Of a DNA stretch of 44,441 nucleotides, positions 20,917 to 44,441 are shown one piece after another. Numbering within the stretch: the stretch's first letter is position 1; every line of letters starts with the position of its first letter. The translations under genes were made by a program, and so were the position numbers. Below the pieces are notes generated by a model. It saw nothing but the letters and a program-made list of their open reading frames with translations. It made no database searches and was not told the origin of the DNA. Source of the DNA: Candidatus Thorarchaeota archaeon (lineage in GTDB: Archaea; Asgardarchaeota; Thorarchaeia; Thorarchaeales; Thorarchaeaceae); NCBI GenBank assembly GCA_011364905.1, contig RDNZ01000019.1, positions 4,354 to 48,794 of the forward strand, read 5' to 3'.

Positions 20917-21923
20917 TGGAGCGGTTCAGTGGAACCATCTTTGGCCTTAAGAGAGTTGGCAAGTATCTCACTGATGGCGACTTGAGAAAAGCCTACTCCG
21001 AATACAAAGAGTCTGAGGAAACAGCATTACGGCTCATTGTGAACACCATCCTTGCAGAGGGATGGATAATCACACTATCCAATCCAAAAACCATTGATGA
21101 GCTGGCTCAGGAGCATGGATACACAAACAAGATGCTCCTCGGAGATATCCTTACACTTCTTGTCAGAGAAAACATCGTTGGGTATTCAGGAGGAAAATAC
21201 CAAATACGCGAGGTGAGGACAGCAGCCATTCGCCCGGAAGATGTGGGCTCTGCAATGACCAATTTCTATTACGACTGCTCGAAATACCTTCCAGCAGCTC
21301 TTGTTGGAAGAAAAGTTATGCTCAACGAGGTACCAAGGGTGGTGCTTGAAACCGTATTCAGTAGCACACTGACTGAGAAGGGTCGCAGTGTTCTGTTGAA
21401 GTCATTTTCACCAAAGAAAACAAAGGAGATTGGAGTATCAGCCTTTGCTGATGTTGGTCTGCCTTTTGCTCTGAAGCAGATTGATGACATATTCAATCCT
21501 GAGAGGATTCATCTGTTTCTCCAGGACTATCGATGGTATACACCATTAAGGACTATACTGCAGTTACTATCTGAAGACAGGACGCTCGACAAGCTTGTTC
21601 CTGACCTGCTTGGTAGAAATCCGGACACTCGCCTAGACTTGTTTTACGGAGAGGAGATCTTCTCCTTTAACCACGACTCGTTCGATGAGAGGGTCAAAAC
21701 AGTTTCAGCCTACCTTCATCCGGGTGCAAGATTAGTAACAAATGACCCAACACTACCACCCGGAGAGACCGTGAGTACCCCAGCCTACGTGCTTATGCAG
21801 ACAATAGAGGGCTATCCACAACCTCTAAACCGGGACACCATTGAGAGTGTGTTTCAGAAACATTCGCTGACTGTTCAAACCATCGGTGATAACTGGGTAA
21901 TTGCAGAGAAGGGGGCTTCCTAA
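20916..21923 (+). CDS. N-terminal winged-helix plus probable degenerate class I methyltransferase-like domain
   Basis: PKTIDELAQEHG..LL..IL.LLVRENIV..GGKY wHTH; DLFYGEEIFSF..VSAYLHPGARLV resembles methyltransferase post-motif II/III; no glycine-rich motif I; TGATG overlap with DUF547 gene. Confidence 0.55.
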   Translation: MERFSGTIFGLKRVGKYLTDGDLRKAYSEYKESEETALRLIVNTILAEGWIITLSNPKTIDELAQEHGYTNKMLLGDILTLLVRENIVGYSGGKYQIREVRTAAIRPEDVGSAMTNFYYDCSKYLPAALVGRKVMLNEVPRVVLETVFSSTLTEKGRSVLLKSFSPKKTKEIGVSAFADVGLPFALKQIDDIFNPERIHLFLQDYRWYTPLRTILQLLSEDRTLDKLVPDLLGRNPDTRLDLFYGEEIFSFNHDSFDERVKTVSAYLHPGARLVTNDPTLPPGETVSTPAYVLMQTIEGYPQPLNRDTIESVFQKHSLTVQTIGDNWVIAEKGAS

Positions 21924-21924
21924 A

Positions 21925-22635
21925 ATGGTGGAGAAACGCGCAGTACGAGAACTGTTTGTGATTCATAAGAGTGGTTTACCCATCACACATGTGGGAACTG
22001 GCCACGTCCAGATTGATGATGCGCTGTTTGGGGGTTTGCTGTCGGCAATAGAGAACGTGGGTGTGAGTCTTGGACTTGATGGAGACGTTTCGCTTGATAC
22101 GATCAGGTTCAGAGCTTATGAGATGGTGTATTCGAGAACGGAGAATGCGCTCATTGTTCTTCTGACCGACCAGGACACCAAAGGATTCCTAGAGAAGGCT
22201 AAGCCCGAGCTGGAGAAGATTGGTAGAGAGATAGAAGCGGGATGTTTCATGGATGAATTCGAGATCAAGACTGCTGAGAGAACAGCAAGAATAGACTCAG
22301 TCATCACACGGCATGCAAGAACAATTTTTGCAGAGCAGGATGATGTGTTCTTCTGGGATGAAGACCATACATTTCAGCTCTGGGAGCACGAGAATGAGCG
22401 TTGGCATGGACGCACTCTTTTCAAGAACTATCTGTTGCCGTCCCCCCTCATAAAGACACTCAACCTTCCAATGGAGGACCTCATTGATATCTGTGACTTG
22501 CTAGAGGAGAAACGACGACCCTCAGAGATACTTCATCACCCAGGATTGGTTTCCAAAGATGAAGATGAGATTATGAATGCGGTGAAACTGCTTCATATGT
22601 ATGGTCTCGTCCAATGTTTCAGGTCCGCTGTCTGA
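21925..22635 (+). CDS. Longin/roadblock-like N-terminal domain plus probable C-terminal winged-helix
   Basis: ELFVIHKSGLPI...DDALFGGLLSAI...LDTIRF...IVLLTD is the pattern of Asgard longin-like domains; C-terminal DLLEEKRRPSEI...IMNAVKLLHMYGLV is wHTH-like. Confidence 0.65.
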   Translation: MVEKRAVRELFVIHKSGLPITHVGTGHVQIDDALFGGLLSAIENVGVSLGLDGDVSLDTIRFRAYEMVYSRTENALIVLLTDQDTKGFLEKAKPELEKIGREIEAGCFMDEFEIKTAERTARIDSVITRHARTIFAEQDDVFFWDEDHTFQLWEHENERWHGRTLFKNYLLPSPLIKTLNLPMEDLIDICDLLEEKRRPSEILHHPGLVSKDEDEIMNAVKLLHMYGLVQCFRSAV

Positions 22636-38328: not shown

Positions 38329-39165
38329 ATGGTGAGAGATTGGATTCAGAGAAATGCTGTAGCATCCTATGTGCTACTCACCTATGGAATCACATGGTCG
38401 CTTGCTATAGTCTTAGCTCTATCATATCACGGTGTGATCAGTCTTCAGATTCCTTTCGCTCTGCACTACATCCTTCCGTACGGTCCCATGCTCTCTGCGC
38501 TCATTGTGACCTGGTTGAGAGGTGGGACTCAGAGTCTTCATGATCTTCTTGGCAGGATGTCGAAGTGGAGAATCAGACCAGTCTGGATTATCATAGCTTT
38601 GTTCTCAGTCTGGGTATTCTACATCGCCTCAGCACTCATGATGGTTGCCATGGGACAGCCTTGGCCAGATTTGAGCATATTTGGTCAAGTCATGTATCTC
38701 CCATACCTGACCTTCTTTGGTGCGTGGGCTCTTTGGATCTTCACCTATGGAATCGGTGAGGAAACCGGTTGGCGTGGCTATCTGTTGCCCCATATCCAGA
38801 CAAGATACAGTGCCTTCGTTTCCAGTCTGATCGTGGCCATCATATGGGCAGGGTGGCACGCTCCAATGTTCCTCTACAATGAGAACCTCATGTCGTTGGG
38901 ACCTATTGGGACTGTCTTCTGGACCATTGGTCTCATGTTCGGTTCTGTACTGTTGACTTGGATCTACAATAACACTGAGGGGAGCATCCTCATGACTGCG
39001 ATCTGGCATGGGACATTCAACACTTTCTCAGCTGCTGCAGGTCAGGCAGCAAGCGTCCCTTCGGGTATCATCAGCATGTTAGTGATGGTCGTAGTGGTCC
39101 TAGTTGTCATCATTTACAGGCCCAAGAACCTGTCACATCTAGAGAGGCAACAAGCCACAGACTAG
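38329..39165 (+). CDS. CPBP/Abi (Rce1-like, type II CAAX protease) intramembrane glutamic endopeptidase
   Basis: GEETGWRGYL, IWAGWHAP, GSIL..AIWHGTFN motifs; multiple TMs. Confidence 0.9.
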   Translation: MVRDWIQRNAVASYVLLTYGITWSLAIVLALSYHGVISLQIPFALHYILPYGPMLSALIVTWLRGGTQSLHDLLGRMSKWRIRPVWIIIALFSVWVFYIASALMMVAMGQPWPDLSIFGQVMYLPYLTFFGAWALWIFTYGIGEETGWRGYLLPHIQTRYSAFVSSLIVAIIWAGWHAPMFLYNENLMSLGPIGTVFWTIGLMFGSVLLTWIYNNTEGSILMTAIWHGTFNTFSAAAGQAASVPSGIISMLVMVVVVLVVIIYRPKNLSHLERQQATD

Positions 39166-39192: not shown

Positions 39193-41409
39193 TCATCCTC
39201 TCTCGGTGACTCTTTTGATACTCGCACGAACGTAAGATTCCTCATCGACTGTGAAATGACTCAACTTCAGTTGGATTTCCAGTCTTTCTCCGTCGAAGGT
39301 CTTGATGTCCCATCTCAGATCCTGCTGCTTCCCACTTGTGACCTTGCTCATCAGTTGTTGGCTCTTCTCTTTTGACGATTGTTTGTCAACCTGGTTACGA
39401 GGTGAGAGTTGCCAGAGCGTCTTACCCAGTAATTGTTCCTTTTCGCAATTGAAGAACTTGAAGGCCGCAGTGCTACAGTCTACCACTTGCTCATCTTTGA
39501 AGACGAGGACCGCCTCTTCAGCGGCGTTAAAAAGCAGGCGATACTTCTCCTTATCCTCCTTGAGAGTTTTAAGAAACCGCTGGTTTTCTGTCACGTCCAT
39601 GACCTGTGTAATATACAAGGATACAGTGCCATCCTCCTCTCTGAGTGCTGACGAGATTACTTGGACATCTATCGTGCCGGATTTGGATGATCTAAATCCT
39701 CCTTTTGCAAGGTCGTATCTAATTTCACTCTTCACCACCTCGCCTCGTTGAATACTCTCCAACAGTCCTTGAGGTACATTTTGATCTCGATCTAATCGGT
39801 ATGATTCATAATCGCTTGGGCCTGAAACTCCAAACATCAGTCTAGCAGTTTCATTAAACTGGATAATCCGACCGTTTGTGTCATACAGAACAATGCCGAT
39901 AGGAGTATGCTCAAAGACTCCTCTGAACCTCTTCTCACTCTCTTGCAGTGCAATTTCAACCATGTGCTGCTCGGTTATGTCAACCTCAAGAGCCTGCATG
40001 GCTCGTTGTCCATCGTGTTCAACGACATTGACATAGGAGTCTACCCATCTTATCTCGCCATCCGGTCGTATGTAACGAAATCTCTGTTTCGGAAGTTTTT
40101 CTGCTCCTGATGCGACCAGTTTGTTTCGCATTTCTAGTTCTTTTCTGTCATCGGGATGAACCAAGGTCCAGGTTTCTTCAGCAGACATCGCAAGCAGTTC
40201 TCCGATTGTCCGCCCCACAGTTTCAGCGTAGGCTTCGTTTGCAAAGACAATTTTCCCATCGACAAATATAACGATGCCCTGTAGCGACTCTTCGAAAAGT
40301 CTGCGGTACCTCTCCTCGCTTCTATCTAGCGCTTCAAGCATGAGCTTTTCGTGAGTGACATCAAGCAAGGTACCTGCTGAGCGGAGTGGTGTGCCGTCCT
40401 CATCTCTCTCGACAACACGACCCCTGTCCAGCACCCAGACAAAGCGTCCGCTCTTGGTTACCAAGCGATGCTCTGAGGAAAACATCGGGGTTTTGTTCTT
40501 CAGGTGTTCGTCCCACCTGCTCTCGACAAGTCCGAAGTCATCAGGATGGATTAGTTTCATCCAGTCGTAGGCAAAGGCATTCAACTCCTCAGGAGTGTAC
40601 CCCAACATCTCAGCGATGCGGTCACTGAATACCATCCGGCCAGTTGTGTGCTGCCAGTCCCACGGCGCAAGATCAGCCCCGCGGAGGGCAAGTTCAAGTC
40701 GCTCCCGACTCTTTCGCAGTTCTTCCTCAGTACTCTTCTGTGCGGTTATGTCTCTGACGACGGAAACAATACTCTCGCCATCATCATGAAGACTCATCGT
40801 GACTGAGAACCAATAGGTGGAGCGTCCTATCTTCAACTGGTATTCATAGGCATCAGCACGTCCAGTCTCCTTGACCTGTTGCGCCAACTCAACGGCTTTC
40901 TCCGTGATCTCAGGAGGAAGAACATCTCGCTCTGTCAGGTCAGGAGAGATCTCAAAGGTCGTTGGGACAAAGAACTTCGCAGTGGTCCTGAAGTACATCC
41001 CCCTGACTCTCTTCGAGGACCCTTTCTCACCCTTCTTCGGGGGAGGATACTGCTCGACAAGTCCTTCTTCCCGCAGTTTCCTGAGATGGTAGTAGCAGTT
41101 ATAGTTAGAGATCTTGAGCTTTGGCTTGTTCTCCTTTATGGTATCAAGCACCTCAGCAACACTCATCCAAAGCCTGCGAGACGGTGTTCGAGTGGTGACC
41201 TCCTCAGTGATCACTGTTCCATCATCCATCTGCTTCTCAGTCGTTTTGACCTCAGTCTGGAAATCTTCAACTCCTTGATCTAGTGCTCTAAGAATTTCAA
41301 GACGAATAGGATGATAGAGAGACTCCTTCTGCTCGTGGGTTTCCAAGACCATGAAGTCCTTTCTCTCTGTGTCAGGGAGTCCTGATGGTATGGATTCGTT
41401 TTGCCCCAT
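39193..41409 (-). CDS. One-component regulator: ArsR-like winged-helix plus partial PAS/PAC plus four PAS domains, no kinase domain
   Basis: HPIRLEILRAL...YYHLRKLREEGLV; PAS hallmarks IHPDD, VHPDD, RDIT/DVT/DIT junctions, SEERYRRLFE, SEKRFRGVFE, EKYRLLFN; ends right after the last PAS; GAGGA RBS before ATG 41409. Confidence 0.85.
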   Translation of the reverse strand: MGQNESIPSGLPDTERKDFMVLETHEQKESLYHPIRLEILRALDQGVEDFQTEVKTTEKQMDDGTVITEEVTTRTPSRRLWMSVAEVLDTIKENKPKLKISNYNCYYHLRKLREEGLVEQYPPPKKGEKGSSKRVRGMYFRTTAKFFVPTTFEISPDLTERDVLPPEITEKAVELAQQVKETGRADAYEYQLKIGRSTYWFSVTMSLHDDGESIVSVVRDITAQKSTEEELRKSRERLELALRGADLAPWDWQHTTGRMVFSDRIAEMLGYTPEELNAFAYDWMKLIHPDDFGLVESRWDEHLKNKTPMFSSEHRLVTKSGRFVWVLDRGRVVERDEDGTPLRSAGTLLDVTHEKLMLEALDRSEERYRRLFEESLQGIVIFVDGKIVFANEAYAETVGRTIGELLAMSAEETWTLVHPDDRKELEMRNKLVASGAEKLPKQRFRYIRPDGEIRWVDSYVNVVEHDGQRAMQALEVDITEQHMVEIALQESEKRFRGVFEHTPIGIVLYDTNGRIIQFNETARLMFGVSGPSDYESYRLDRDQNVPQGLLESIQRGEVVKSEIRYDLAKGGFRSSKSGTIDVQVISSALREEDGTVSLYITQVMDVTENQRFLKTLKEDKEKYRLLFNAAEEAVLVFKDEQVVDCSTAAFKFFNCEKEQLLGKTLWQLSPRNQVDKQSSKEKSQQLMSKVTSGKQQDLRWDIKTFDGERLEIQLKLSHFTVDEESYVRASIKRVTERG

Positions 41410-41485
41410 GGTGCCGGTTTCCTCAAGCTTGTCTGTAGAGAGCGCAGAACGCGTTTTCATTAGAAGTCATGTCTACGGATTCACT

Positions 41486-41607
41486 ACATTGTGTAATGCG
41501 CAGTACTAGAATAAAAGGTTTTGTTATTACACTGCAATACATTACAAATCAGTACTATTGCAATAGGCTTAAATAGTTTTATTTTTTTATTGCAACTCGT
41601 TACAATA
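41486..41607. promoter_or_regulatory. AT-rich divergent promoter with candidate operator palindromes
   Basis: Perfect 12-bp palindrome CTATTGCAATAG (41555-66); imperfect TATTGCAAC-TC-GTTACAATA (41588-607); GTGTAAT (41491-97)/ATTACAC (41526-32); TTAAATA TATA-like box near 41569-75. Confidence 0.55.
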
Positions 41608-41648
41608 GCGCTTGGCATCAAGTGATTAGATGCGCCGGAGTGATACCT

Positions 41649-42482
41649 GTGACAACAAATGCAAATGAACAGACTCAGAATCAACAGATGGAGAGTAGTC
41701 CGAGAATCCTGCTCCTGATCGAGGACGATGACCAGAAAGAGTCACTCCATCACCCAATTAGGAAACAGATTCTCAGGGTCCTGTCAGCAGGTATTGATGA
41801 CTATGAAACTGAGGTCACTACTGACGTGCGGACGCTCGAAGATGGCACGGGCCTCACTCACTCAGTTGAGGTGAGAAGACCCATACAGAGGTACTGGATG
41901 GCAGTGCCAGAGATTGTTGAGCGTCTTGAACAGAGATATCCAGAACATGAGATCACCAGTTATCAGTGCTACTATCATCTGCAGAAGCTGGAGGAGCAGG
42001 GACTTGTCGAACAAGACCCTCCATCCGAGTTCGATGATAAGGGCAGGAAGAAGAGAACGAGAGGTATACAGTTTCGTTCTGCCGCGCGGTTCTTTATCTA
42101 TCACAAACCAGGATTCTCAAAAGAAAGTCCAAACCCATGCCTTGACTTTCTGCAGGATGGATGGGGGCTGGAACCCTCTGAGGAAGACTGTGAAGAACTG
42201 ACACAACTAGTCGCAGAACAGGACAAGACTCTCTTCAGAACTTTGGAGAATCTGGTGAGGCACATGGATGGCTCAGCTGTCGACAGCGTGTCATTCTCCA
42301 TTCTGCTTGACCGACTGGCTCACATCCTTCTGTCAGACAATGAGGAGTTCATTGAACGCTACAGAGATGCAAAGAGAATCTTGGTACGGTCGGGCGGAGA
42401 ACACTTGGTCTCTGATAAAATGCAGTCTAATGGGACTGAAGATGTCAAGAAAGAAGAAACCAGAGGTAAAAACGATGATTAA
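41649..42482 (+). CDS. ArsR-like winged-helix regulator, paralog of the N-terminal domain of the divergent PAS protein
   Basis: QKESLHHPIRKQILRVL...CYYHLQKLEEQGLVEQ.PP...RG..FR.AARFF; GGAGTGA RBS before GTG 41649. Confidence 0.8.
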   Translation: MTTNANEQTQNQQMESSPRILLLIEDDDQKESLHHPIRKQILRVLSAGIDDYETEVTTDVRTLEDGTGLTHSVEVRRPIQRYWMAVPEIVERLEQRYPEHEITSYQCYYHLQKLEEQGLVEQDPPSEFDDKGRKKRTRGIQFRSAARFFIYHKPGFSKESPNPCLDFLQDGWGLEPSEEDCEELTQLVAEQDKTLFRTLENLVRHMDGSAVDSVSFSILLDRLAHILLSDNEEFIERYRDAKRILVRSGGEHLVSDKMQSNGTEDVKKEETRGKNDD

Positions 42483-43029
42483 TGCGACAACGCGAGCTCC
42501 GATCTTTAAGACGGTTCTTGTGGGTGAAGGGGGTGTCGGAAAGACAAGTATCACCCTTCGCTACACAGAGGATCGTTTTGATGAGAACATGATGCTCACT
42601 ATTGGTGCAAACTTCGCCTCCAAGAGGGTAGAACTCAATGGCTCGGCCATGACCCTGATGATCTGGGACCTGGGCGGGCAACCACGTTTTCGAGATGTTA
42701 TTGGGGATTACTTCAAGGGAGCTAAGATTGCCATTGCAGTCTGTGATGTAACTCGTTCATATTCGCTTGCACGACTCACTGACTGGCTTGATCGGCTGAA
42801 GGAGTGCGCCCCAGAAAGCGAACTTCTAGTCGTTGGAAACAAGACTGACGAGAGAACCAATGGGACTGGAGTATCTCCTGAAGAGGGACAGCAGTTCGCG
42901 GAGAAGTACGGTGCTCAGTACATCGAGGTGTCGGCAAAGACTGGTGAGGGAATCAATGGCATGTTCGAGATGGTTGCTCAACAACTTGCGAAGAAGTATC
43001 TCGGACAGACAGAGGGATGCGCAGCATGA
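42475..43029 (+). CDS. Ras-superfamily small GTPase, Rab-like
   Basis: G1 GEGGVGKT, G2 TIGANF, G3 WDLGGQ, RFR, YFKGA, G4 NKTD, G5 EVSAK; GAGGT RBS before ATG 42475. Confidence 0.95.
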   Translation: MINATTRAPIFKTVLVGEGGVGKTSITLRYTEDRFDENMMLTIGANFASKRVELNGSAMTLMIWDLGGQPRFRDVIGDYFKGAKIAIAVCDVTRSYSLARLTDWLDRLKECAPESELLVVGNKTDERTNGTGVSPEEGQQFAEKYGAQYIEVSAKTGEGINGMFEMVAQQLAKKYLGQTEGCAA

Positions 43030-43286
43030 CGAGAATATCCTTGAATCCATTCAATTGCCCAGTGTGCAAGGATGGAACAATAGTGAGGGTGGATGTCGAT
43101 GAAGACTCCATCATAAAGGCGAAGCGACTGCCGGCCATGGTGACGGTCACCTGTTCGAAGAACCACACGCTTGTGTTGTTCGTTGACAGGAGCTTTCAGG
43201 TCAGAGATGTTGAGGCGGCAGTGGGAGCAACTGGCGGCGATAAGGACGCCATAGACAAGACAGAGGACTGGTTCAGTTCGTTGTAA
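43026..43286 (+). CDS. Small zinc-finger protein (CxxC...CxxxH)
   Basis: CPVC...TCSKNHTLVLFVDRSFQVRDVE; ATGA overlap with GTPase stop. Confidence 0.75.
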   Translation: MTRISLNPFNCPVCKDGTIVRVDVDEDSIIKAKRLPAMVTVTCSKNHTLVLFVDRSFQVRDVEAAVGATGGDKDAIDKTEDWFSSL

Positions 43287-43334
43287 CAAATTGATCATGA
43301 TAACACAGTAAATTAGTAATTGGAGCAAAAAGAA

Positions 43335-43778
43335 ATGTACGGAATAATGTTGGTGAACCAAGCAGGGGAAACAGTTGCCTCAGCAGGCTGGGAAGCCTTC
43401 GAGGGCGACGTGACCATGTTTGGGGGCTTTGTGTCAGCAGTTCAGATGTTCATCAAGAAGGTCGCTGGTGGCACACGAGTGGAAGAACTCCGCTTCGGTA
43501 ACATGAAACTGCTAATCGGCAGCTCTGATGAGTACCATGTCGTCACACTTCATGAGTCCGATGAGAAATCAGCAGAGGCTGAAAACCAGGAAGTCGTCAA
43601 GCTCGTGCGCGAGAATGGCGGGAAGTTCACTGATGGTTTTCTCGCCCTGGTGCAGGAACTCATTACAACGGACAAGATCGCCTCCGCAGAGGTCAATGAG
43701 AGTGTGAAGGAATGGACCCAGTCACAGGTTGACAAGGCTAAGAAATCCGCTAGTGATTGGGGAAAGACTGTGTTTTAG
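43335..43778 (+). CDS. Longin/roadblock-like domain protein
   Basis: GIMLVNQAGETV...DVTMFGGFVSAVQMFIKKV...VEELRFGNMKLLI; GGAG RBS before ATG 43335. Confidence 0.7.
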   Translation: MYGIMLVNQAGETVASAGWEAFEGDVTMFGGFVSAVQMFIKKVAGGTRVEELRFGNMKLLIGSSDEYHVVTLHESDEKSAEAENQEVVKLVRENGGKFTDGFLALVQELITTDKIASAEVNESVKEWTQSQVDKAKKSASDWGKTVF

Positions 43779-43790
43779 GATGTGTTAGCT

Positions 43791-44441
43791 ATGGGAGTAT
43801 ATGAAATAACTCAACTCTATATCGGATTGGCAACACTCTTGGCAGCTCTGACAATCGGTCGTTACAGTTGGATCAAATCCTCTGAAATGGAGGCTGATTC
43901 TCGAAGAGCATTCAGGCCATTGTATGTTGTCGCTATTGGATTTGTTGTCTTTGGCCTCGGAGCCTTAGCAACATATATTGAAGAAATAACTGGACAAGCA
44001 ATCCTGGTAGACACCTACTATGCCTTTTATGCAGCAGCTGCTGTGGAGGTTGTCCTGCTCGGAATTGCTGCGGCCATGATCCTTGACATAAGACGTTTCT
44101 ACGCAGTTCCACTATCTACTGGACTCGTATCTATCCTGCTCTTCTATCTCGCAGAGGTCTTTCCACAGACATCAGATGTCCTTCTGTTGATAGGAGTGTT
44201 GTTTCCTTCCATTATACTGGCCAGCATTGGTGGAATATTCTTGTGGATCACAAAGGAAACAAAACGTGGAACAAGCGCGGCCTTGGCATTTGCCCTTCTT
44301 GTCCAGATTGCAGGACTACCAGTACTGTACTTCGACCTGCTCATCGGACCGGAAGCATTGCTTGCTCTGTTCATAGCCCTCATGGGACCTGCGATGGTCG
44401 TATTCGCATTCCTCCGTCCTGACCAAAGAATCACCTTGGAG
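43791..44441 (+). CDS. Polytopic membrane protein, about seven TM in the visible 217 codons (truncated by window edge; not in ORF track)
   Basis: Manual translation: MGVYEITQLYIGLATLLAALTIGRYSW...LYVVAIGFVVFGLGALAT...YYAFYAAAAVEVVLLGIAAAMIL...FYAVPLSTGLVSILLFYL...LLLIGVLFPSIILASIGGIFLW...AALAFALLVQIAGLPVLY...ALLALFIALMGPAMVVFAFLRPDQRITLE; no stop. Confidence 0.8.
   Translation, partial: MGVYEITQLYIGLATLLAALTIGRYSWIKSSEMEADSRRAFRPLYVVAIGFVVFGLGALATYIEEITGQAILVDTYYAFYAAAAVEVVLLGIAAAMILDIRRFYAVPLSTGLVSILLFYLAEVFPQTSDVLLLIGVLFPSIILASIGGIFLWITKETKRGTSAALAFALLVQIAGLPVLYFDLLIGPEALLALFIALMGPAMVVFAFLRPDQRITLE

Follow-up and report, generated by a model that had tools for sequence, protein, structure and literature searches.

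The window analysed here, a stretch of 44,441 nucleotides (G000:C14:4354-48794) whose end is also the end of its contig, comes from a genome whose homologue names point to Thorarchaeota, an Asgard lineage. At 39193-44441 it carries six genes, four of which encode a Rab-like small GTPase, a zinc-ribbon-type (Zn) protein, a predicted longin-fold protein and a polytopic membrane protein. The adjacency of these four genes in relatives is strong evidence that they constitute one functional module, inherited together. The reading preferred here, with a rough probability of 0.6, is that they encode a four-protein, membrane-attached small-GTPase switch, and that the other two genes, a pair of transcription factors, regulate the operon in this subtype of the module.

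Linkage and distribution of the cassette

A preliminary description of the locus, made from the sequence alone, had listed the six genes with their positions, overlaps and gaps, and all of these proved exact in the open reading frame (ORF) table and the junction bases. Five plus-strand genes face a minus-strand gene for a 755-aa regulator across a 227-bp spacer. The first of the five, encoding a winged helix-turn-helix (wHTH) protein, shares 8 nt with the start of the GTPase gene (42475-82, ATGATTAA), and the GTPase gene overlaps the Zn gene by 4 nt (43026-29, ATGA). A gap of 48 nt then precedes the longin gene and one of 12 nt the membrane gene, which is cut off by the contig end at 44441. 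That the end of the wHTH gene overlaps the start of the GTPase gene points to co-transcription.

Relatives of this locus were chosen solely by a match to the membrane-protein family, giving 42 loci from 34 genomes (this one included) with 44 copies of the membrane gene, and were scanned with hidden Markov models (HMMs) for the four families. A longin gene adjoins all 44 membrane genes, and Zn genes and cassette-type GTPase genes adjoin 43 each. This adjacency is far beyond chance. The genes occur in three arrangements: GTPase, Zn, longin and membrane protein as in the window (G-Z-L-T), the order Z-L-T-G, and Z-L-T with a convergent GTPase gene. Conserved linkage in relatives had been set beforehand as a refutation test of the proposed association, and it held in the 42 loci across these three gene orders. 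As the linkage is kept through duplication, rearrangement and divergence to 20–30% identity, it argues strongly for a functional module.

Some genomes contain two or three paralogous cassettes. The genome studied here has a second one on contig C42 (L020 4792-7388), in the order Zn-longin-15TM-GTPase. Compared with the window, identity is 64% for the GTPase, 43% for the Zn protein, 33% for the longin protein and 27% for the membrane protein. A 301-aa ORF adjoining this second cassette appears gelsolin-like by eye only, and Pfam assigns it no family.

A survey of 400 genomes of the phylum found the membrane family in 41 of the 85 that belong to the same family as the window. Two further families have it, one in 2 of 3 genomes and the other in 2 of 19, and the largest family has it in none of 135. 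In the genomes of the more distant families (L024-L027) the four genes once more lie side by side. Within the Asgard genomes searched, the module is thus found almost only in Thorarchaeia, and this restriction argues against simple direct ancestry of eukaryotic pathways. The preliminary description had seen in the locus a eukaryote-like receptor-GTPase pathway; the comparison is an analogy and no demonstration of ancestry. The most distant members of the membrane family are found at L039/L040 (GCA_021161985.1, GCA_964646155.1), L036 and L037. One distant member sits with a small GTPase, a longin-like ORF, a 473-aa protein without assignment and an S8 peptidase, and the S8 peptidase recurs in L036.

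The four proteins

The GTPase (184 aa, 42475-43029, plus strand) was rightly described as Rab-like. It matches the Pfam Ras family at E 2.1e-42 and carries all five G motifs (GEGGVGKTS, LTIGANF, WDLGGQ, GNKTD and VSAKTG), which place it in the Ras superfamily. Its nearest PDB sequences are Rab18, Sec4, Rab8 and Rab1 (E 1e-33 to 1e-31), with the crystallised Thor-Rab GTPase 7EZB (PMC10933270) at 9e-31. G1-G5, including DxxGQ, are retained across 22 cassette GTPases. The protein is therefore predicted to be catalytically intact, and it lacks a conserved lipid-anchor motif. The C-terminal Cys prenylation motif of eukaryotic Rabs has no counterpart, with no Cys conserved at the C-termini of the cassette GTPases, and membrane attachment would hence need a partner. 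The cassette GTPases form a single clade with SH-aLRT support of 97, apart from seven other small GTPases near the same loci; the tree gives no resolution on type A versus type B monophyly.

The window copy of the GTPase terminates in ...GCAA. CAAX-type prenylation of this tail was considered and rejected, as neither the tail nor the Rce1-like neighbour is kept in relatives (G002). This neighbour, a gene of the Rce1-like CAAX protease family (PF02517, 4.7e-13) at 38329-39165 on the plus strand, adjoins the PAS regulator gene, probably by coincidence.

The longin protein (147 aa, 43335-43778, plus strand) had been called longin-like, an assignment supported at the level of the predicted fold. 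An AlphaFold2 (AF2) model built on a 42-sequence alignment (predicted local distance difference test, pLDDT, 69.7) has the topology bb-a-bbb-aa followed by a long C-terminal helix, with the longin domain spanning residues 1-116. Strands are modelled at residues 3-8 and 13-17, a helix at 26-44, strands at 51-54, 57-64 and 67-74, and helices at 80-94 and 100-111. This is the β2-α-β3-α2 order without an N-terminal helix, the feature that separates longin from roadblock domains. The top Foldseek matches are zeta-COP, Mon1/Ccz1, AP2 sigma and VAMP7. In structural comparison with VIA, the model aligns with the Sec22b longin at Z 10.6 over 113 aa (3.0 Å), and the first 33 rows are longin domains throughout. 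Chains of Mon1/Ccz1, TRAPPC4, Fuzzy and LAMTOR give VIA Z 8–9.3, roadblock proteins (LAMTOR and the Asgard roadblock of MK-D1) Z ~8 over ~90 residues, and MglB chains Foldseek E 4e-3 to 9e-3. By sequence, the protein has no Pfam family at E<=1, its orthologues likewise have none, and a PDB search returned chance-level rows only.

The Zn protein (86 aa, 43026-43286, plus strand) contains the pattern CPxC...C-x3-H, a conserved FVDxxFxVRDVE block and a conserved tail, K-[AT]-x-x-W-x3-[FL]. These features were seen across 23 aligned cassette copies, and its earlier description as a CxxC/CxxxH zinc protein stands. No Pfam family was found for the window protein or its orthologues, with chance-level rows to the Elf1, OapC and Brz zinc ribbons at E 0.01–0.2. 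Its nearest ESM Atlas clusters, ranked by language-model features, are all Asgard hypothetical proteins.

The longin and Zn proteins share an ending. Both finish in a conserved helix with the pattern K-[AT]-x-x-W-x(3,4)-[FL]-COOH, in which the Trp lies 5–6 residues from the C-terminus; the longin protein ends in a conserved ...DWGKTVF. Of the 27 longin copies that adjoin a cassette, 26 carry the Trp tail, as do 22 of the 23 Zn copies, the most distant cassettes included. The tail is absent from a 244-aa longin paralogue encoded elsewhere in the window (21901-22635, plus strand), the N-terminal half of which matches the cassette longin HMM at E 1.2e-29 and which has no Pfam match. This paralogue lies within four overlapping plus-strand genes, together with those for a DUF547 protein, a 336-aa protein without assignment and a methyltransferase.

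For the membrane protein, the window holds the N-terminal 217 aa, encoded from an ATG at 43791 (or a GTG at 43782) to 44441 on the plus strand. The fragment shares 76% identity with residues 1-220 of the G002 orthologue (464 aa), and full-length orthologues measure 455–500 aa. The AF2 model of the G002 protein (pLDDT 88.8, predicted TM-score 0.85) is all-helical. Together with the positive-inside rule applied to loop charges, its helices give 15 transmembrane (TM) helices in a 7+1+7 arrangement, which puts the N-terminus on the outer and the C-terminus on the inner side; all loops rich in Lys/Arg are cytoplasmic. The preliminary description of a protein with about seven TM helices was correct as to the type of bundle, which is of the 7TM kind in VIA, and incomplete as to the protein, as the window holds only the first bundle of a protein of ~460 aa with 15 TM helices.

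Each half of the model resembles the bundle of G-protein-coupled receptors (GPCRs), with seven helices, the N-terminus outside, the C-terminus inside and ~200 residues aligned. Residues 241-453 align with the adhesion receptor ADGRL3 (8jmt_A) at VIA Z 14.3 over 206 aa (4.0 Å), and further rows are CD97, designed GPCR-like folds (Z 13.6) and GABA-B and mGlu receptors including mGlu5 (Z 11–13), scores to be read with the tool's own note that helical bundles reach Z 13–14 without homology. Residues 1-212 align with GLP-1R and ADGRF1 at Z 10.2–10.4. For both halves 7TM receptor folds fill nearly all of the top 50 rows, and transporter folds none. The bundles thus appear to share a helix arrangement with GPCR-type 7TM proteins and are not read as GPCR homologues. 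An internal duplication of the protein is suggested by the model only.

No Pfam family, and hence no 7TM receptor family, matched the window fragment or the sequences of two full-length orthologues. A profile search of 1.84e9 representative proteins found 68 members of the family. The full-length members (~450–500 aa) match the profile end to end, that is, as double-bundle proteins, and the remaining shorter matches (67–382 aa) are taken as fragments. The same search returned no single-7TM, GPCR-sized, eukaryotic or known-family relative. Within the family, mean conservation is highest in the cytoplasmic loops and helix ends (~0.63) and lowest in the outside loops (~0.37). The invariant residues E217, Y221, R270, T279, P341, P381 and G448 lie at cytoplasmic helix ends. 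In the 461-aa orthologue, cytoplasmic loops fall at residues ~155-162, 209-222, 266-279, 389-404 and 447-452.

Transcription factors and a candidate operator

The 755-aa protein (39193-41460, minus strand) combines an HTH_20 domain (2.4e-7, 31.0 bits against a cut-off of 27) with four PAS domains, matched by PAS_3, PAS_9, PAS and PAS_4 (best PAS_3 7e-37 and PAS_9 3e-31). Pfam gave no HisKA, HATPase, kinase or receiver match in this protein, and the earlier description of a wHTH-4xPAS gene without a kinase is upheld. With PAS and DNA-binding domains and neither kinase nor receiver, it has the composition of a PAS one-component regulator. The first operon gene (ORF from GTG 41622, with a likely ATG at 41688, to 42482, plus strand) encodes an ArsR-like wHTH protein of 264/286 aa, with HTH_20 at 1.3e-6 (28.7 bits against the cut-off of 27); like the PAS protein, it is of the ArsR type. 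Over ~132 aa it shares 47–50% identity with the N-terminal part of the PAS protein, which makes the two proteins paralogues. The C-terminal ~130 aa of the wHTH protein have no PDB or ESM Atlas relative (the best Atlas score, 0.77, is noise), and a PDB sequence search with the protein gave nothing meaningful.

The divergent PAS gene, followed by the wHTH gene and then G-Z-L-T, occurs in 7 of the 42 loci. These come from seven genomes in four genera (the window, G002, G362, G377, G378, G379 and G351), and the other 35 loci have no such transcription factor genes. Between the window and G002, the intergenic spacer has diverged except for one block holding a TATA-like box and a palindrome. In the window (41569-41607, plus strand) this block consists of the TATA-like TTAAATAG at 41569-41576 and, beginning 12 nt after it, the imperfect palindrome TATTGCAAC-TC-GTTACAATA at 41588-41607, a candidate promoter and operator. 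The 20-bp motif TATTGCAAY-NN-RTTRCAATA is found in the same place in five of the seven loci, from two genera. In the three loci of the second genus it stands at the same distance from a TTTAAATA box, and one of them has a perfect 9+2+9 palindrome. Archaeal repressors usually have their dimeric wHTH site in this position, immediately after the TATA box. Scans for sigma-70 promoters and terminators stayed at shuffle level, and sigma-70 is not applicable to an archaeon.

The transcription factors look like regulators of the operon because they accompany only 7 of the 42 cassettes, lie in a divergent upstream layout and have a palindrome after the TATA-like box between them. The pair is accessory to the module, and its sequence context makes it more likely to control the operon than to receive its output. 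The wHTH and wHTH-4xPAS proteins would most likely repress or tune transcription via TATTGCAAY-NN-RTTRCAATA, with the PAS protein giving transcription an intracellular signal input. A perfect 12-bp palindrome, CTATTGCAATAG (41555-41566), shares the TTGCAAT core and lies 22 nt upstream of the operator-like site on the side of the PAS gene; it could be a second binding site.

Mechanism, alternatives and related systems

In the proposed switch, the membrane protein would hold the complex at the membrane and may gate the GTPase. The longin protein, possibly with the Zn protein, would serve by analogy as a platform for GTPase loading or for stimulation of hydrolysis. Longin/roadblock proteins serve as such platforms in Mon1-Ccz1, TRAPP, Ragulator and MglB. 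The longin and Zn proteins may dock, through their Trp-bearing tails, at the cytoplasmic face of the bundles; that two alike tails and two alike bundles mean one docking site each is speculation. A stronger version makes the double 7TM protein a receptor-like transducer, in which the cytoplasmic cavity of each bundle takes one Trp helix, as a GPCR takes the C-terminal helix of G-alpha, and a change in the bundle switches longin guanine-nucleotide exchange factor (GEF) or GTPase-activating protein (GAP) activity. This version is distinctly improbable; were it true, the cassette would be a prokaryotic device for signalling from a 7TM protein to a small GTPase, and it might be related to the ancestor of 7TM/G-protein or longin-GEF systems in eukaryotes.

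Several observations weigh against the proposed switch. One locus (L051), in a genome of 60% completeness, has no adjacent GTPase gene. Of the three most distant membrane-family members examined, two stand alone with no GTPase nearby. The longin model is of only moderate confidence (pLDDT 69.7). Foldseek of the membrane model against the PDB gave no row at E<=1e-3, helical bundles score VIA Z 13–14 without homology, and the two halves of the membrane protein have no significant sequence similarity to each other (hhalign E 0.046, probability 1%). Two of the seven loci with transcription factors also lack the palindrome.

The preliminary description proposed a directional circuit from sensor to longin to GTPase to transcription factor. 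Here the membrane protein would sense an outside signal, the longin would activate the GTPase and the GTP-bound GTPase would control the wHTH protein, the PAS protein or both as output. The translational coupling of the wHTH gene to the GTPase gene, the C-terminal domain of the wHTH protein (~130 aa), which could bind the GTPase, and the joint presence of the pair and the cassette in four genera fit this scheme. However, the 35 of 42 cassettes without the transcription factor genes imply that the module works without them, the operator-like site in the factors' own promoter region fits regulators of the operon, and the membrane protein shows little conservation in its outside loops. The scheme is considered unlikely, and the presence of the pair in only seven of 42 cassettes, its upstream divergent position and the palindrome after the TATA-like box speak against both the transcription factors as output and the direction of the circuit. 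A similarly doubtful alternative makes the membrane protein a transporter or channel, with the GTPase and longin regulating transport or reporting its substrate, as SLC38A9 and LYCHOS do for Rag-Ragulator. Fifteen TM helices without a soluble domain are typical of permeases, and the Foldseek rows of the membrane model include at the top LYCHOS/GPR155, a fusion of a transporter-like domain with a 7TM domain signalling to Rag GTPases (E 0.024, TM-score 0.27, rmsd 20.7), and MATE, MFS and MurJ at E 0.1–0.5. None of these rows (E 0.02–0.5 overall) is significant, and they were rejected as evidence for a transporter. Nor is there a Pfam transporter family match; the 7TM receptor folds that make up nearly all of the VIA top 50 for both halves leave no transporter fold among them, and conservation concentrates in cytoplasmic loops rather than along a membrane-embedded path.

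The cassette could instead be a membrane-identity or trafficking and remodelling device, in which the GTPase marks sites and recruits cytoskeletal or remodelling effectors, in the manner of Rab or MglA polarity rather than signalling. Rab18, Sec4, Rab8 and Rab1 as the nearest relatives of the GTPase and SNARE and adaptor longins as the nearest folds of the longin protein are in keeping with this, as are the ORF judged gelsolin-like by eye (no Pfam family) beside a paralogous cassette and a third longin paralogue adjoining a Roadblock/LC7 protein. Conversely, no effector genes are conserved in the cassette, genome-based analysis gives no sign of internal membranes or vesicles, and this explanation overlaps the membrane-attached switch in all tested features. 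It is judged very unlikely.

Operons of a small GTPase with a longin/roadblock protein are known already, and the nearest is the conservon, or actinobacterial G protein system. It joins a membrane sensor kinase, an MglB-type roadblock protein, a DUF742 protein and a Ras-like GTPase (CvnA-D) in a single operon, of which a genome often has several copies (PMC13343842, PMC13621833). The cassette likewise places four genes in an operon, for a membrane protein, a member of the roadblock/longin superfamily, a small protein and a Ras-like GTPase, and both systems occur in paralogous copies and have a regulatory logic that is poorly understood. The components differ throughout. In place of the sensor histidine kinase CvnA the cassette has a double 7TM protein without a kinase, the MglB-type roadblock CvnB (PF03259) has a counterpart with longin topology and no Pfam match, and CvnC is a DUF742 protein in place of the C2CH zinc ribbon; the cassette GTPase is Rab-like and not MglA/CvnD-like. 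With no kinase, Robl_LC7 or DUF742 match in the cassette proteins and no component that is a sequence homologue, the layout is analogous only. MglA-MglB likewise pairs a prokaryotic small GTPase gene with an adjoining roadblock-superfamily regulator. However, MglB follows the roadblock topology and is the GAP of MglA, a GTPase without the standard catalytic arrangement, whereas the cassette GTPase is Rab-like with DxxGQ and its partner fits longins better than roadblocks.

Within Asgard archaea, Liu et al. described an operon that combines a roadblock protein resembling LAMTOR1 with a Rab-like GTPase and a DENN protein, predicted to be a GEF module and conserved in most Asgard lineages (10.1101/2020.10.19.343400). 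The coupling of a Rab-like GTPase with a longin/roadblock-superfamily protein is a principle common to both, but the parts are not: the cassette has no DENN protein, the Liu operon has no membrane or Zn protein, and the cassette is nearly confined to Thorarchaeia. Eukaryotic longin Rab GEFs (Mon1-Ccz1, the TRAPP core, CPLANE/Fuzzy-Inturned and BLOC-3) and Ragulator-Rag similarly place longin/roadblock proteins with a Rab/Rag GTPase at a membrane. These are hetero-oligomers of several longin domains with lipid or peripheral anchors, whereas the cassette has a single small longin as putative GEF, the gene of which adjoins those for a Zn protein and a polytopic membrane protein. The likeness to GPCR-type 7TM proteins (adhesion/class B2, class C and class B1) lies in the seven-helix bundle and its N-out/C-in orientation. 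The cassette protein differs in having two bundles in one chain with a linker helix, no sequence similarity to these receptors, and a monomeric Rab-like GTPase as partner rather than a heterotrimeric G protein. According to a 2026 preprint, structural families shared by Asgard archaea and eukaryotes include 7TM proteins and a cluster of class C GPCRs (10.64898/2026.10.28.762692), among which the cassette family may be.

Full-text searches of a library of papers found no published description of this cassette. Its unusual feature is the receptor-shaped membrane component, a putative part of the mechanism. Should this protein prove to gate the GTPase, prokaryotes would have their first example of coupling between a 7TM-shaped protein and a Ras-superfamily switch. 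Small GTPases and longin/roadblock proteins are very numerous in Asgard archaea, almost none with a known partner, location or signal. The cassette gives one GTPase subfamily fixed partners (one longin, one Zn and one polytopic membrane protein), thereby identifying probable partners at the membrane for a small GTPase in archaea closely related to eukaryotes, and the window subtype adds probable regulators and an operator candidate. The function of Asgard GTPases, and whether they act at membranes, becomes testable on four small, expressible proteins.

Further longin-like genes occur near cassettes and elsewhere. In some Thorarchaeia an extra longin gene follows the Z-L-T-G cassette (L030 6061-11019, L031 5746-8845 and L032 5659-9076), and in L030 a second 15TM gene comes next without a Zn or GTPase gene of its own. 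A 142-aa ORF downstream of the membrane gene in G002 (L013 7176-7604, minus strand) matches the longin HMM weakly (E 5.8e-6). It is not found downstream in G362 or G001, and the equivalent position in the window lies beyond the contig end. The third longin-like paralogue of this genome (G000:C43, L021 3222-6916, minus strand) stands beside a true Roadblock/LC7 protein (PF03259, 1.2e-10). The set also includes a 308-aa ORF without a Pfam family and a protein of 555 aa with a zinc ribbon at its end, and it recurs in G002 (L023).

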